64,000 bases of DNA from a virus (Duplodnaviria; Heunggongvirae; Uroviricota; Caudoviricetes). The stretch lies in the IMG/VR virus record IMGVR_UViG_3300037312_000757; one strand, written 5' to 3'. Position numbers and translations under genes: made by a program. This document shows, one piece after another, positions 37,614-54,926 of this stretch (within the stretch, counting starts at the first letter, position 1; each line of letters starts with the position of its first letter). The notes under the pieces were generated by a model. It did no database searches. It was given only the letters and a program-made list of their open reading frames with translations, and was not told the DNA's origin.

Positions 37614-38288
37614 ATGCATAATTCAACTAGTAGCATGCGCCTGCTGATGAAGCTCTGTGAGGCACCTAGCGCAATGAAGAAGGGCGACAAAATACAACCA
37701 GATCAGATGGTGGAAGGCGATTTGGTTGAATTGAACGGCAAAACTCTTGTTGTAGTCGCAAAGAAAATGGGTCGAAAGTTCTACGAGATTTCTCTCTCAG
37801 AACCAAGCACTGGCAAGACCTTTACTTGGAAGCCATTTATTGGCAAGGATACCCAGCAAAAGCTGATTTTCTTGGGCAAAGCAGCAGATGGTGATATGCA
37901 GGCTGGTGTGCAAAAGCGCAACGACCGTGCAGATGCAAAGTACGATCAATTGCGCCAGAACCAGGATGCGCTGGACAAAATGGATCTGAAACCAGGCATG
38001 GAAGTCCTGATTAAGTTCCGTCAAGGTAACTACTGGAAGACAGTTGATGGCGTTGACTACAAGTCAGGCCAAGTATCCGTCGTTGATGATCACACACTGA
38101 ACGCAAACCCAGATCTGTATCGCAATCCACATCGCCAGAAACGAAAGCTGATTCCTGCAAACTTCATTCTTGATAAGCGTGAAGGTTCAGAACACACATC
38201 ACAACGAGCGGCTGATTACGCTGACAAGTTGGATCAAAACCGTGATCAGGCTGCTATGAAGCGAGAACTGCGTAAACGCATGTGGTAA
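37614..38288 (+). CDS. hypothetical late protein (possible SH3/KOW-like beta domains)
   Basis: CATAAATA upstream; N-terminal MRLLMKLCE. Confidence 0.7.
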   Translation: MHNSTSSMRLLMKLCEAPSAMKKGDKIQPDQMVEGDLVELNGKTLVVVAKKMGRKFYEISLSEPSTGKTFTWKPFIGKDTQQKLIFLGKAADGDMQAGVQKRNDRADAKYDQLRQNQDALDKMDLKPGMEVLIKFRQGNYWKTVDGVDYKSGQVSVVDDHTLNANPDLYRNPHRQKRKLIPANFILDKREGSEHTSQRAADYADKLDQNRDQAAMKRELRKRMW

Positions 38289-38291
38289 AAC

Positions 38292-38318
38292 ATGATGGGG
38301 AGCAAAGCTCCCCATCAT
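38292..38318. terminator. bidirectional terminator
   Basis: ATGATGGGGAGC-AAA-GCTCCCCATCAT between convergent genes. Confidence 0.8.
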
Positions 38319-38362
38319 TTTGGGCTTGATTTGCAACCAAGTGAATGTAGACCCGCAAACGA

Positions 38363-39034
38363 TTACCACAACAAGTTGAAATTACCCGCCATCACTTTAT
38401 CGACGGATGCCGACTTGCCACTATTGTGATCCTTCACAATATCATCTTGAAAACGATACGTGCGGATCTTGTCACCACGCATACCAGAACCCGTTTGCGC
38501 TTTGCGTTCGGCTGACTGCGCTGCATTGTGCTCCGCAGTAGCTTTACCGTTCAAACGATCGATGATTGCGACCTTTGCTTCATCAAGTGAGTTCTCACGA
38601 CTACGGCATTGCGCGGTAGCAACGGTGCCTGTTGGAATGTGTGTGATGCGACACGAGTTCTGATGCTTATTGCGGTGTTGGCCCCCTGCACCAGTACCAG
38701 AGTACCACTCAATGCGGAAGTCACGCTCGTTCCAGGAGACGCTTGGTGCGTCTTGTGGGTCAATTACGGCTACAGTAACGGTCGAAGTGTGAACACGTCC
38801 GCGCCGTTCGGTTGGTGGAACGCGCTGGATTCTATGTCCGCCTGCTTCGTTTATGAGTTGGGAAAGATCGGTGCCTTCTACGGTAATGCTGACACCAGAG
38901 TCGCCGTTATCGGCGTATTGAGTGAGTCAGCCGACTCGTGTGAAGTGCTTGATGTATGCGTTTGCCAGGTCTTTAGCAAACAGCTTTGAATCTTGGCCGC
39001 CTTCGGCCCCTTTGATTTCGATGATGCGTTTCAT
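38363..39034 (-). CDS. class-I peptide chain release factor (RF1-type PxT, lacking domain 1) with in-frame UGA at codon 36
   Basis: AAAGGAG RBS; MKRIIEIKGAEGGQDSKLFAKDLANAY...RVG*LTQ...EAGGHRIQRVPPTERRGRVHTST...GAGGQHRNK...KIRTYRF all in one frame; TGA at 38927-38929. Confidence 0.9.
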
Positions 39035-39086
39035 CATGTTCTCCTTTAAGTGAGGACCTACATTCTATTGCCATCTTAACTGGTAG

Positions 39087-39488
39087 TCAATAGCGTGTAA
39101 GCCCGGGATATTTATTGCTGTGAAACTCAGGTGACAGTGGACGCGCCCGCCATGACGTCTTGTTACTCACATCGTTGAAATAACGATCATCGCGAAACTG
39201 GCTGTTCACAATCTGGTTGAGCTCACGCGTTGATTGTGGGATCAAGCCATTTCCATCTTTGCCATCAAACGTCATTCCATGTTCGACGACATATTTTTCC
39301 AGCGCTTTCCATTTGCGAACGTTTGATCGTCGTGGAGCGCGGAAATGATGACCAACGTTTACCATCTCTTTGCCACATTCAGGGCAAGGACGTTCGGCAG
39401 TTTTGACATGTGCATCATGAAAAACGATGCGGCACTTGAAACATGCACATCGGAATGAGAATGCAGTTCGCCTACGTTTCATGAACAT
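39087..39488 (-). CDS. Zn-finger hypothetical protein
   Basis: CFKC...CPEC; own promoter TTGACT-17-TATGCT. Confidence 0.7.
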   Translation of the reverse strand: MFMKRRRTAFSFRCACFKCRIVFHDAHVKTAERPCPECGKEMVNVGHHFRAPRRSNVRKWKALEKYVVEHGMTFDGKDGNGLIPQSTRELNQIVNSQFRDDRYFNDVSNKTSWRARPLSPEFHSNKYPGLTRY

Positions 39489-40123: not shown

Positions 40124-40336
40124 TTAGTTCTCCACATCAAATTCCAAAAGTTCTTCGATCAACAGCTGGTAATGACACTTGACAGCATGTAATTGATCGA
40201 GCAACTTCTGCGTGATTTTTCCTGTCTTGCGACAAACGTCCAAAGCCTTTTGTAATTCGGCATCTAGCGCTTCGGACCGCAGATGGAACCATGTTTCAGT
40301 TCCATCTGCATGATAGCCTACAACAGAAACGACCAT
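40124..40336 (-). CDS. hypothetical protein
   Basis: TGATG coupling. Confidence 0.6.
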   Translation of the reverse strand: MVVSVVGYHADGTETWFHLRSEALDAELQKALDVCRKTGKITQKLLDQLHAVKCHYQLLIEELLEFDVEN

Positions 40337-40806
40337 CAGCCGATCAGTTTCCCCAGCACGTCGCTTGCCAGCTTGCCGTCATACTGGCCGTTGTAGTTGG
40401 CCTTCAGAATGGCCATTGCTTTGCCGCGTTCCTTGGCCGTAATGCCATCCGGGAATTCGGCGCGGAAGATCTGTTCCAGTTGATCTGCCGTCAGTTGTTG
40501 TGGCAGATAGCCGTTCAGGATCTCGGCTTCCTTGCGTGCATCCGCGAGTGCCTGTTCGTCCTTGACATTCGCCTGCACTTCGGCGTTGCCCTTCAGGAAC
40601 TTGCGCACAGTTGCGATGATTTCATCGCTCGTCGGATCGCGCTTGATCACGCGGCCGTCAGCATCACGTTGTTCCTTTTCGGCGGCAGCATCAGCGAGCG
40701 TTTTTGCTTCGCCGATCAGTGTCGTCAGCAGCGAAGCGACGATAGTGTTTTTGTCCTTGCGGGCCTGCAATTGGTCCGCTTTAATCTGTTCTAGCGTTAC
40801 CGCCAT
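40336..40806 (-). CDS. GatB/YqeY-domain protein
   Basis: LEQIKADQLQARKDK, EAEILNGYLPQQLT, GKAMAILK...DGK. Confidence 0.88.
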   Translation of the reverse strand: MAVTLEQIKADQLQARKDKNTIVASLLTTLIGEAKTLADAAAEKEQRDADGRVIKRDPTSDEIIATVRKFLKGNAEVQANVKDEQALADARKEAEILNGYLPQQLTADQLEQIFRAEFPDGITAKERGKAMAILKANYNGQYDGKLASDVLGKLIG

Positions 40807-40885
40807 CACGTTCTCCTTTTTCTTCACTAATGGTCTTAGATGATACATTCATATAGGACCATCAGCAATGTTTATTGCTTATTGT

Positions 40886-41941
40886 TTATTGGGTCCCGCA
40901 CGTATCTTTGCCTCCCAATTGATTGGGAACAATCGGCTTGCCGTGCATCCAATGCTTGACCGTTTGCACATGATTGGGGCGAACATACTTGGCTACACTG
41001 TGGCGGAAGTCCGCATACGAGAAGCCGTCAGCAATACGCAGCACGTAACCTTCTTCGGTTACGGTGTCAAGATCAGTAGCCAGCTTACGCAGCTTTTGTT
41101 CATCGTAGATGCCATCGTAAATGACTTCTACGGGCGTGATGCTCATCAGCTCAAAATACTCTAGCGTGAGGTTCCAGGGCAAACAGAAGTTCTTGTCATC
41201 CCAGATCGAGAAGCCATAGAAGTACGACTTCAAGTCAGGATAAAAGATCGAATGCTCAGCGAACAAGTTTTCACCGCAGACGCGCCATCCCTCTGGAATG
41301 TCACCACAGATCTGACCCCAGAAGTTCTTCACCCAGTTGCGGCTAGGGTGATTACGACTGTCCACGCTACGTGCATGGATGTAGTCAGGATACATGGTTG
41401 TATTCTCGCCATCCATTTTCTTGGTGGCAATCACACGCTTGCCTGCGAAGTTGGCATTGCAAACATTCGGCGGCAGAACACGGTCATCGCTCGATGGCGT
41501 TGGTGACCAGGGCAGATGATATGTGCGCTGATACTTGACGTAGTGGGAGAACAACCCCAACACGCCACCTTGGGTAAGAATCTTCTGCACGCTTTCATCG
41601 TTGAACAGTTCGCCCTTCAGCCGTGTACCGTTCGGCTGAACCGGGTTGCCCCACTTGTCGTAGACTTGATCGTCGTACAAATGCGGCGGAATGATCACCT
41701 TGGTGATACCGCAAGCATGACGCACGTCTTCGACACTGATCTCAGTGGTCTCACACTTGATGTGATGTTCACTACAGACCGAGGCTCCATTGTCCAAATA
41801 ATAGCCACCGTCCGGCCATAGCCGACGTTCGAGAATGTGATGTGCGTCCTGCGCAGGTTTGTCGCAGAACACGCATTTGTTATTGTCACGCGCAAAAACT
41901 CCTTCGCGAAATTGATCACGCGTCAATAGCTTTTGACTCAT
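40886..41941 (-). CDS. HNH-like Zn domain fused to ATP-dependent RNA ligase
   Basis: CVFC...DAHHILER...VCSEHH; ligase motifs KMDGEN, CGEN, FYGF, EGYV, KYVR. Confidence 0.85.
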   Translation of the reverse strand: MSQKLLTRDQFREGVFARDNNKCVFCDKPAQDAHHILERRLWPDGGYYLDNGASVCSEHHIKCETTEISVEDVRHACGITKVIIPPHLYDDQVYDKWGNPVQPNGTRLKGELFNDESVQKILTQGGVLGLFSHYVKYQRTYHLPWSPTPSSDDRVLPPNVCNANFAGKRVIATKKMDGENTTMYPDYIHARSVDSRNHPSRNWVKNFWGQICGDIPEGWRVCGENLFAEHSIFYPDLKSYFYGFSIWDDKNFCLPWNLTLEYFELMSITPVEVIYDGIYDEQKLRKLATDLDTVTEEGYVLRIADGFSYADFRHSVAKYVRPNHVQTVKHWMHGKPIVPNQLGGKDTCGTQ

Positions 41942-42332
41942 TTTCTTTTCTCCATTCACGTGTGAGACCCAGCAGATATTTGGCCTCATCACGCATAACA
42001 CCCCAGATTGGTGTGCAGTTATGTTGTTCAACGTGCTTGATGAAGTTTTCGAGCTCGCAAATCAAGACTTCATTTGATGGATTCTGGTGAGCACGATCGA
42101 GAACTGCGCTGTAAGTTGACAGCACGGCAGCACAATCAAGATGACCGTCACGATGATTTGTCGCACTGACTTCTTGCTGTTTGTTGCGAATCAGGAAGTA
42201 CACAGGAAACTTGGCATAAAGAACTACCTTCCGTGAATCCTGATTCGCCAACTTTTCAGGGTTGTACCACAGCTTGAAGCGGCGCAACTTGATGTCGTTC
42301 AGCCTATTGTCGATGTCTTTGAATGTGGTCAT
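41916..42332 (-). CDS. hypothetical protein
   Basis: GGAG RBS before MTTF. Confidence 0.65.
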   Translation of the reverse strand: MTTFKDIDNRLNDIKLRRFKLWYNPEKLANQDSRKVVLYAKFPVYFLIRNKQQEVSATNHRDGHLDCAAVLSTYSAVLDRAHQNPSNEVLICELENFIKHVEQHNCTPIWGVMRDEAKYLLGLTREWRKENESKAIDA

Positions 42333-42351
42333 GATATTCTCACCAGTTACT

Positions 42352-42669
42352 TCATGCTTGAAGCAACGCGGCTTTCGGCTCATATACTTTCTCTAACGTC
42401 ACGATGATGTGATCGAGCTGCGACAGCGCCATCGCCATATGAGACGGCAACGTAAACAGACCATTCACGTGCGAGTACGCGCTCTTTGCGGCACGAAGCA
42501 GCGCTTCATCTGTGTGCTTTGCTTTGTTCCGGTCCATCTCGCCGAAGAGCATGCTGAGCGCGGTGTAGCGCGCAAACAGCAGAGGATTGCCGGCCATGTA
42601 GCCACGAATAACTTGTGCGTCCAGTGCATCGAATTCAGCTTGCAACAGCTTAACAAGTTCGTTCTTCAT
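42352..42669 (-). CDS. hypothetical protein
   Basis: GGAG RBS; promoter TTGACG-17-TAGACT with palindromic spacer. Confidence 0.7.
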   Translation of the reverse strand: MKNELVKLLQAEFDALDAQVIRGYMAGNPLLFARYTALSMLFGEMDRNKAKHTDEALLRAAKSAYSHVNGLFTLPSHMAMALSQLDHIIVTLEKVYEPKAALLQA

Positions 42670-42732
42670 GAAAATGGCTCCAACGTGTTTAGTTGAAGCC
42701 AGTCTACGTTCATTTGAACGGCACGTCAAGCA

Positions 42733-42948
42733 TCATGAATGATTGATATTCCTCGGCGAGCCGTCATCGTTGTAATAACGAGCTGAGATTGGAACCTTTT
42801 GATGCAAGCGCACATCATCCCGTATGAATTCCTCAGCACGTTCCAATGATCCAAAAGTTGGCGCATTCATAGGCCAATATATGCCCAGCTTCTTCTTTAG
42901 CACCTGAAAGGTACCAGGTGCGATCTCATCAATCCTGTACATGATCAA
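42733..42948 (-). CDS. hypothetical protein
   Basis: 71 aa; similar YRI..G..W..F/Y.TLE.A pattern to 42945 neighbour. Confidence 0.6.
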   Translation of the reverse strand: MIMYRIDEIAPGTFQVLKKKLGIYWPMNAPTFGSLERAEEFIRDDVRLHQKVPISARYYNDDGSPRNINHS

Positions 42949-43226
42949 TAATCAAGTGGTTTGCCATTTTCTTGAAACCAGTACTCACGTTTCTTAAACT
43001 TGGCCTTTTCCTGCTGTTCAGCCTTTTGTGCTAAACGCATTTCAGCATGATTTCGCAATGCTTCTCGTGCGTCCTCTAATGTTGAATAGACAATCACATG
43101 TTCGCCGGCGTACGAGTTTTCTGTCACCTTGAACCAAAGGCCAAACAAACCCCTCTCTTTAATGTAGTAGCGATTGGGTTCAAATTCAACAATACGATAT
43201 TCGACGCGACTGTAGCTTCCTGGCAT
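42945..43226 (-). CDS. hypothetical protein
   Basis: 93 aa; TGATG coupling. Confidence 0.65.
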   Translation of the reverse strand: MPGSYSRVEYRIVEFEPNRYYIKERGLFGLWFKVTENSYAGEHVIVYSTLEDAREALRNHAEMRLAQKAEQQEKAKFKKREYWFQENGKPLDY

Positions 43227-43627
43227 CAGTAGAGCCTCAAGTGTGACGTGATGCCTTCAAACTCTTCGTTGAAAGCAGGACCGATCGCAAGGCAGGTTAC
43301 GGTTGGTTGACCGTTAAACACAGTCTTACCACTGTCGGTGATGCGACATACTGGCAAACCCGCTGCAATCGCTTTTGCTTCGATCGCCTCGAGCTCAGCC
43401 AAGTCCTTGCAACCCAGAACAGGCTTGGTGAAAATACCTTCCCACCATTCGGCCAACGCAGTGTCGTTTTCCACGACAAGCGTGTATTCACGCTGTTCTT
43501 CGGTAGCCGTTACCAGCATTTGAGACTTGATTGCGCCCATTGCGGCGTGGGCAACTTGCGCAGCCAATTTACCTGGCGGCATGTTGAGGTCGCGACGTGC
43601 GACGATTACTTGTTTTGTTGGCATCAC
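43226..43627 (-). CDS. pth2: peptidyl-tRNA hydrolase, Pth2 type
   Basis: KQVIVARRDLNMPPGKLAAQVAHAA, DSGKT, TCLAIGP, ITSHLRLY. Confidence 0.93.
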   Translation of the reverse strand: MMPTKQVIVARRDLNMPPGKLAAQVAHAAMGAIKSQMLVTATEEQREYTLVVENDTALAEWWEGIFTKPVLGCKDLAELEAIEAKAIAAGLPVCRITDSGKTVFNGQPTVTCLAIGPAFNEEFEGITSHLRLY

Positions 43628-46801: not shown

Positions 46802-46886
46802 TGGTGCCCCGGGACGGACTCGAACCGTCAAGCCTTTCGGCGGCAGATTTTGAGTCTGCTGTGTTTTCCAGTTTCACCACCGGGGC
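46802..46886 (-). tRNA. tRNA-Leu(CAA)
   Basis: GCCCCGG acceptor, GCAGA-CT-CAA-AA-TCTGC, long variable arm, TTCGAG, ACCA end. Confidence 0.95.
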
Positions 46887-54849: not shown

Positions 54850-54926
54850 TGGTGCCTCGAGAGGGAATTGAACCCCCGACCTCACGGTTTCGGAAACCGG
54901 CGCTCTATCCACTGAGCTACCGAGGC
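54850..54926 (-). tRNA. tRNA-Arg(CCG)
   Basis: GCCTCGG acceptor, GGA with A20, TT-CCG-AA loop, TTCAATT, ACCA end. Confidence 0.9.

Follow-up and report, generated by a model that had tools for sequence, protein, structure and literature searches.

A maintained in-frame UGA and its probable readthrough in a phage gene for an RF1-type release factor without domain 1

Does a stop codon early in the reading frame of a phage release factor gene mark decay, or does it control how much of the factor is made? The question is raised by a gene, here called mini-RF1, on the minus strand of a 64,000-nucleotide stretch of DNA (the window; positions refer to it unless given as genome positions) from IMG/VR virus record IMGVR_UViG_3300037312_000757. 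The source of the window is a complete 523,836-bp phage genome with direct terminal repeats. The gene encodes an RF1-derived class-I release factor without domain 1, and we consider it probable, from comparison of homologous sequences, that the full protein requires programmed readthrough of an in-frame UGA at codon 36 (UGA-36) in competition with host RF2. The readthrough event, the insertion of Trp at the site, and the dependence of expression on RF2 are what we infer from the observations below.

The gene, its product, and the in-frame TGA

mini-RF1 is a single frame from the ATG at 39034 to a TAA at 38363-38365, and its sole internal stop is the TGA at codon 36, which stands in the context CGA GTC GGC TGA CTC (Table 1). 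These coordinates agree with those of a first-pass annotation of the window, which had described one frame running from a Shine-Dalgarno (SD) sequence and ATG to TAA and had pointed out that the program-made list of open reading frames (ORFs) captured only the last 63 residues. The list gives no more than that (entry 38363-38554, with a TTG start) because the first 124 codons past the TGA contain no ATG, GTG, or TTG. An additional in-frame ATG lies at 39037, just 5' of the start at 39034.

With Trp placed at the TGA, the product matched the Pfam families RF-1 and PCRF, the latter only over model positions 103-194 of 194. Its best NCBIfam match was RF1 (188 bits; model positions 107-332 of 347), with the RF2 and PrfH models well under that score (109 and 46.6 bits, respectively). 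Because the RF1 match begins at model position 107, mini-RF1 is RF1-derived and lacks domain 1. The four-domain architecture of RF1 was not found, domain 1 being absent from both the NCBIfam and the Pfam coverage, and the scores stayed below the RF1 equivalog cutoffs (188 and 183 bits versus 400 and 423 for TIGR00019 and NF001859). Stops stand just 5' of the mini-RF1 ATG in both relatives read there (L002 and L005), and a 133-aa ORF upstream of the gene had no Pfam match. The first-pass annotation had been right about the factor type and the missing domain, and its comparison with PrfH holds for that missing domain but not otherwise, since the PrfH score is far from the cutoff (TIGR03072; 166.65 bits). 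The decoding segment is canonical for RF1 (QRVPxTE..GR.HTS; here QRVPPTE...HTS), and both the PPT and GGQ motifs are present. Going by these motifs, the protein would read UAA and UAG for peptide release.

An AlphaFold2 model built with W36 (mean pLDDT 88.7) showed the RF1 fold over domains 2 to 4, and its top Foldseek matches in the PDB were ribosome-bound RF1 structures (TMq 0.86; E = 1e-19). In this model, the 35 codons upstream of the TGA account for the first strand of domain 2 and for its first helix. In phmmer alignments against PDB sequences (1zbt and 2fvo), the TGA codon fell opposite the Trp of the RF1 "GW" motif, consistent with the Trp-equivalent position that had been proposed for it.

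A scan of IMG/VR gave 254 relatives, the best 80 of which were used for alignment (61-73% identity). The TGA site was not part of the search patterns, and any bias of the confirmation step would have been toward TGG. Codon 36 was TGA in 80/80 relatives (81/81 including this phage), with no alternation with TGG, and every one of the 81 genes contained exactly one internal stop. The invariant Trp columns 110 and 223 were TGG in 81/81 sequences, indicating that TGA is no free synonym of TGG in these genomes. Selection was purifying on both sides of the stop. Over the 195 sequence pairs whose synonymous divergence was not saturated, the ratio of nonsynonymous to synonymous divergence (dN/dS) was 0.10 before the stop (35 codons) and 0.14 after it. 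The start was ATG in 75/80 relatives and the final stop TAA in 76/80, and an AGGAG-like motif preceded the start in most relatives inspected (25 shown). The codon-36 TGA was also present in six copies from bacterial genomes, namely, three isolates (Gemmobacter caeni DSM 21823, Jiella sp. LLJ827, and Thalassospira xianhensis) and three metagenome-assembled genomes (Sphingobium, Sphingomonas, and Pseudobdellovibrionaceae), all from taxa that use the standard code. Judged by this pattern of conservation, the codon-36 TGA is a maintained signal, neither an error nor, as the first-pass annotation had argued, the mark of a pseudogene.

The Gemmobacter caeni copy (L161; NZ_QBKP01000002.1, 380972-387646) lies amid 8 tRNA genes in 6.7 kb, on a 446-kb contig, which suggests that it sits in a large prophage or phage-plasmid of the cultured strain. 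In a large protein database, versions from long contigs start past the TGA (167-184 aa), and 106 full-length versions carry W at the site, all of them from contigs of <6 kb and mostly of ~1 kb. The latter may be the pattern expected of a gene caller switching to code 4. A nucleotide search of GenBank phages returned no match.

Genetic code, termination context, and candidate decoders

This phage uses the standard code (code 11). In a simple, crude gene call based on codon usage (726 genes; 83% coding density), genes ended in TAA (441), TGA (235), or TAG (50), and coding continued past the stop in 9/235 cases for TGA versus 32/441 for TAA. The best TGA junctions proved to be normal ends of genes, with a spacer and then a start codon beyond them. 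Screens of stop usage, of extension past stops, and of start-less stretches found no other convincing TGA-interrupted gene in the genome; among long stretches after a TGA that look coding but lack a start, only mini-RF1 held up. The many in-frame TGA codons in (late) genes that would indicate code 4 were thus not found, only mini-RF1 passing these screens. A looser screen was too noisy to be of use, and its one plus-strand candidate, at genome position 294200, has the look of a noncoding shadow frame.

Within the clade, the codon 5' of the TGA is GGC, GGT, or GGA. The base that follows the TGA (+4) was A in 48, G in 20, C in 7, and T in none of 75 unique clade sequences, and after 57 in-frame TGA codons of distant mini-RF1 genes it was A in 29, C in 28, and likewise never T. 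The terminal TGA codons of this genome were most frequently followed by T (91/235). Given that +4U strengthens termination (PMC5289835) and that +4 is never T at the in-frame sites, these sites stand in leaky contexts. The locus combines an in-frame stop kept across diverged homologues, purifying selection downstream of it, and a weak termination context, as expected of readthrough. A +1 frameshift of the prfB type is not indicated at this gene, as homology continues in frame 0.

A candidate decoder is encoded outside the window (Table 1). ARAGORN identified 59 tRNAs plus a transfer-messenger RNA (tmRNA) in the genome and no tRNA-Trp(CCA); the only Trp-like tRNA of the phage has the anticodon UCA. 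Its distance to the tmRNA gene (genome 182959-183462) is 7 kb, and the main tRNA cluster (genome 388-402 kb) is far away. The UCA tRNA folds as a normal cloverleaf (63.4 bits on the general Rfam tRNA model): the acceptor stem has 7 bp, the variable loop is short, and the CCA end is encoded. It has the G73 discriminator in common with the tRNA-Trp(CCA) of a relative. The anticodon arms of the two are the same except for C34 to U and a C27.A43 mismatch in the UCA tRNA, which leaves a 4-bp anticodon stem. A stem of this length has been linked to UGA reading by tRNA-Trp and tested in Escherichia coli (PMC13092985). The phage has the suppressor tRNA(UCA) of a code-change module, in keeping with the earlier suggestion that a suppressor might be present. 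Tryptophanyl-tRNA synthetase (TrpRS) is absent from its genome.

Five complete relatives (350-424 kb, whole genomes) carry one or two CUA (amber) tRNAs each, and four of the five carry tRNA-Trp(CCA). The UCA tRNA was found in 0/5, and the idea that it is a conserved partner of mini-RF1 was rejected on that ground; of the two, it is the TGA that is conserved, the cognate opal decoder being lineage specific. A pattern search, which is not exhaustive, likewise found no UCA tRNA among five huge phages from GenBank or among five bacterial genomes. The CUA tRNAs of the five relatives (one is at L087:1474-1548) mostly have the tmRNA gene nearby; this phage carries no CUA tRNA.

Proposed mechanism, alternatives, and known systems

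In the reading that we favor, ribosomes would initiate at the SD and the ATG at 39034 and translate 35 codons. At UGA-36, either host RF2 would terminate, releasing a 35-aa peptide, or a Trp-tRNA would decode the UGA, restoring the Trp found in cellular RF1 and yielding a 223-aa factor with PPT and GGQ. The decoder in this phage is probably its own 4-bp-stem tRNA-Trp variant with the UCA anticodon; in relatives without that tRNA, it would be a near-cognate tRNA-Trp(CCA). Output of the factor would be set by UGA decoding against RF2 termination, rising with weak UGA termination or abundant tRNA, and the stop would serve, like the UGA of prfB, as a gate or a sensor. A possible benefit is that extra RF1-type activity could cover UAA termination (61% of phage stops), freeing RF2 for UGA (32%). 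The "rescue" function that the first-pass annotation raised for the factor is speculation.

Several observations weigh against programmed, RF2-sensitive readthrough. No conserved RNA structure was found around the TGA (RNAalifold, 0 pairs across 33 diverse sequences), no conserved SD-like stimulator flanks it in this clade, and the local hairpin at the TGA in this genome was not significant (z = -1.5). Because the site has neither structure nor SD-like stimulator, readthrough efficiency may be low. No reading of UGA is expected from a PPT-type factor, so that simple autoregulation does not describe the loop, and the benefit lacks an explanation. Absence from the five complete relatives rules the UCA tRNA out as the general decoder. 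Any tRNA that reads UGA would, moreover, be expected to read through the ~1/3 of phage genes that end in TGA, and the 726-gene call showed no enrichment of backup stops after TGA-ending genes. Finally, ~9-11 of 80 distant mini-RF1 genes are uninterrupted, indicating that members of the family can do without the gate.

The same stop could instead be a timer, opened by the phage's own tRNA-Trp(UCA) once this has accumulated, with the host RF2 level irrelevant. A canonical UCA tRNA in a genome without tRNA-Trp(CCA), a sole convincing in-frame TGA at the mini-RF1 codon, and the known "code-change modules" of Sup-tRNA(UCA) and RF1 in TGA-recoded Jade phages all fit such a timer. We regard it as somewhat unlikely, however, given that the five complete relatives keep the TGA with CUA and/or CCA tRNAs and no UCA tRNA, that the phage has no TrpRS, and that relatives with SD + CTT TGA frameshift sites need no suppressor. 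It is rather doubtful that the UGA is a fixed attenuator, holding the yield of a potentially harmful release factor to a few percent of initiations with no sensing: a weak SD or promoter would suffice for that purpose, yet the SD here is strong, and the interruption strictly stays a stop codon and is replaced in relatives by prfB-type sites, for which a response to the release factor level is established. Attenuation would agree with the lowered fitness of Bacillus subtilis overexpressing RF1 or RF2 (PMC12421855), with a site that has no stimulatory structure, and with the low cost of an abortive 35-aa peptide from an early stop.

The remaining explanations fare much worse. Internal initiation or a split gene, with two products of which only the post-TGA part is functional, agrees with the 167- to 184-aa proteins that gene callers predict past the TGA on long contigs. 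This is highly improbable, since the predicted starts vary between relatives, the 124 codons past the TGA of this gene offer no ATG, GTG, or TTG, and the 35 upstream codons are RF1 homologous and under purifying selection, follow a conserved SD and ATG, and contribute a strand and a helix to domain 2 of the model. Although TGA is one base from TGG, we give practically no weight to a pseudogene or to a sequencing or assembly error that turned TGG into TGA; 81/81 independent assemblies and the six bacterial-genome copies, three of them from cultured isolates, agree on TGA, and the low dN/dS (0.10-0.14) on both sides is accompanied by no further stops or frameshifts. Equally negligible is the use, by the phage or its host, of a code with UGA as sense (table 4 or 25), or a reading of the UGA as selenocysteine (Sec), for which the presence of the UCA tRNA and its ARAGORN label (SeC, given by anticodon only) might speak. 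An alternative code disagrees with the 235/726 genes that have TGA as their stop and no surplus of coding sequence past it, with the TGG used for the other Trp codons of mini-RF1, and with bacterial carriers, the Gemmobacter, Jiella, and Thalassospira isolates included, that belong to standard-code groups. The tRNA is not of the Sec type, given its 7-bp acceptor stem, short variable loop, and match to the general tRNA model, and no conserved hairpin resembling a selenocysteine insertion sequence follows the UGA.

Programmed, RF2-sensitive readthrough resembles the +1 frameshift of prfB, the RF2 gene (PMC12421855). Both concern a class-I release factor gene with an early in-frame UGA (codon 26 in prfB and 36 here) at which decoding competes with RF2 termination, and distant mini-RF1 genes share SD + CTT TGA C with prfB. 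In contrast to prfB, the mini-RF1 frame stays in phase and thus calls for readthrough, and it has neither an SD nor a slippery CUU at the stop; the gene belongs to a virus, and its protein lacks domain 1. The product is, moreover, RF1 type (PPT) and not expected to read UGA, which would make this cross-regulation rather than autoregulation. Control of a release factor by recoding is textbook for RF2, whereas a survey of >12,000 genomes reported programmed frameshifting for prfB and not for prfA, and TAG never in the prfB motif (Prince et al. 2025, PMC12421855).

Among viruses, the class-I release factor gene of Mimivirus and Megavirus also needs recoding at internal stops, one of them by readthrough; the Mimivirus eRF1-like gene combines readthrough with a frameshift, read by its authors as bacterial-style autoregulation (Jeudy et al. 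2012, PMC3521657). Jade phages likewise join a UGA-reading tRNA and an RF1-type factor in one phage. Their module of Sup-tRNA(UCA), TrpRS, and RF1 uses the standard code for its own genes and supports the many late genes in which TGA is recoded (Borges et al., bioRxiv 10.1101/2021.08.26.457843), whereas here the in-frame TGA is in the release factor gene only, TGA is the normal stop for ~1/3 of genes, and both TrpRS and domain 1 are missing. PrfH (RF-H, RtcB2 paired) is a class-I release factor homologue without domain 1 as well, but the decoding region of mini-RF1 is canonical RF1, no RtcB is adjacent, and the nearby ligase is PF09414. With leaky UGA reading by tRNA-Trp (Q-beta coat/A1; PMC13092985), mini-RF1 shares a UGA contested between Trp and RF2, and the +4 base that is never U and the 4-bp stem both fit. 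Readthrough in Q-beta extends a protein that is already complete; here it would be required for any functional protein, and the Trp would restore an ancestral residue.

Al-Shayeb et al. listed RF1 and RF2 among huge-phage genes in code-11 predictions with interruptions unmentioned (PMC7162821), and no description of a stop-gated RF1-type phage gene was found in the literature searched. If the proposed readthrough is correct, mini-RF1 would be a compact natural sensor of termination capacity and a simple experimental handle on bacterial UGA readthrough, and phages would tune translation termination in addition to supplying tRNAs. For annotation, standard gene callers truncate or split such genes.

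The wider mini-RF1 family and the surroundings of the gene

Domain-1-less genes of this kind (34-39% identity) are also present in four GenBank huge phages of Al-Shayeb et al. (LR756501, LR756502, LR756504, and LR745206; GC content of 27-32%). These carry 1-2 in-frame TGA codons within the first 60 codons, at positions that partly differ, and the ORFs beside them are intact in code 11. A profile-based scan gave further loci, the best 80 of which were examined (69 unique). The gene was interrupted by one in-frame TGA at 26 loci, by two at 19, by TGA and TAG at 3, and by TAG only at 2; 9-11 loci were uninterrupted. A +1 frameshift was found at CTT TGA N at 8 loci, mostly with CGGAGG 5' of the site as in the prfB motif, and at CTT TAG C at another 8 (L245 to L247, L261, L262, L270, L272, and L284, at ~750-765 in each), one of which, L270, has an upstream GGAGG (GGAGG CGT CTT TAG C). 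L275, L277, and L286 read CGGAGG GGT CTT TGA followed by C or G, so that together with L270 these distant relatives display the prfB-type motif. All interruptions in the distant loci fall within codons 32-55. In a rough tree with a single outgroup, the interruption types were interspersed and uninterrupted forms lay near the root; the order of events is not relied on. Variants of the PPT tripeptide were SPT (L279 and L281), PPN (L275), and PLG (L161).

The RF1-type gene is common among huge phages, occurs in genomes of cultured alphaproteobacteria as well, and is interrupted in nearly every case, and the routes of bypass (UGA readthrough, UAG, or +1 frameshift) are interchangeable. The mechanism of the frameshift variants is known to respond to the release factor level, and for this reason the most plausible interpretation of the repeated interruption is that it senses or gates termination activity. 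We tentatively propose, as a possibility short of an expectation, that phage mini-RF1 genes form a family-wide system that senses stop codon reading, in which an early UGA or UAG, bypassed by readthrough or +1 frameshift, would determine how much of the domain-1-less factor is made, including prfB-like CUU-UAG-C sites in RF1-type genes. In this phage, the system would include a dedicated UCA 4-bp-stem tRNA-Trp whose only evident target is codon 36, and it would retune termination in the infected cell.

Table 1. Positions of mini-RF1, its parts, and other features discussed in the text (window coordinates except where marked)
Feature	Position	Strand	Remarks
Whole mini-RF1 gene	38363..39034	-	223 codons counting the in-frame TGA, plus TAA stop
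Shine-Dalgarno AAAGGAG	39041..39047	-	6-nt spacer to ATG at 39034
Codons 1-35, start of release factor domain 2 (EIKGAEGGQDSKLF...)	38930..39034	-	Aligned with RF1 residues ~107-140; dN/dS 0.10
In-frame TGA, codon 36, proposed readthrough site (as Trp)	38927..38929	-	TGA in 81/81; aligns with RF1 Trp
Codons 37-223, remaining domain 2 and domains 3 and 4	38366..38926	-	dN/dS 0.14
PPT tripeptide, residues 73-75, RF1-type PxT stop-codon-reading motif	38810..38818	-	Within QRVPPTERRGRVHTS; invariant in the alignment
GGQ peptidyl-tRNA hydrolysis motif, residues 117-119	38678..38686	-	Invariant in the alignment
Promoter-like TTGACT-17-TAGAAT	39062..39090	-	10/12 matches; just 5' of the SD; weak evidence
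YqeY-like gene	40336-40848	-	Pfam
RNA ligase PF09414 with N-terminal extension	40886-42031	-	Pfam; ~1.9 kb upstream of mini-RF1
Pth2 peptidyl-tRNA hydrolase	43226-43627	-	Pfam
tRNA, anticodon UCA	Genome 190515-190591		Outside the window; only Trp-like tRNA of the phage

Upstream of mini-RF1, the YqeY, RNA ligase, and Pth2 genes make up a cluster of translation and RNA genes (40336-43627); RtcB was not among the Pfam matches of the neighbors, which were these three. No gene neighborhood was conserved within 3 kb in the 80 relatives, barring Pth2 beside the release factor gene in two, where a Pth2 homologue stands directly upstream of mini-RF1 (L071:1660-2037 and L073:2608-2988). Promoter-like sites in the mini-RF1 region were no more numerous than in shuffled sequences. 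Between mini-RF1 and the convergent ORF at 37614-38288 lies an inverted repeat, AAATGATGGGGAGC-TTTG-CTCCCCATCATGTTTT (38287-38321), that by eye has the look of a bidirectional terminator; a consensus scan made no call there. The window also contains a tRNA-Leu(CAA) at 46802-46886 and a tRNA-Arg(CCG) at 54850-54926. Three different huge phages (L102:1486-1562, L135:1469-1543, and L150:1469-1542) carry CAA tRNAs of 74-77 nucleotides with no long variable arm, which is atypical for tRNA-Leu.

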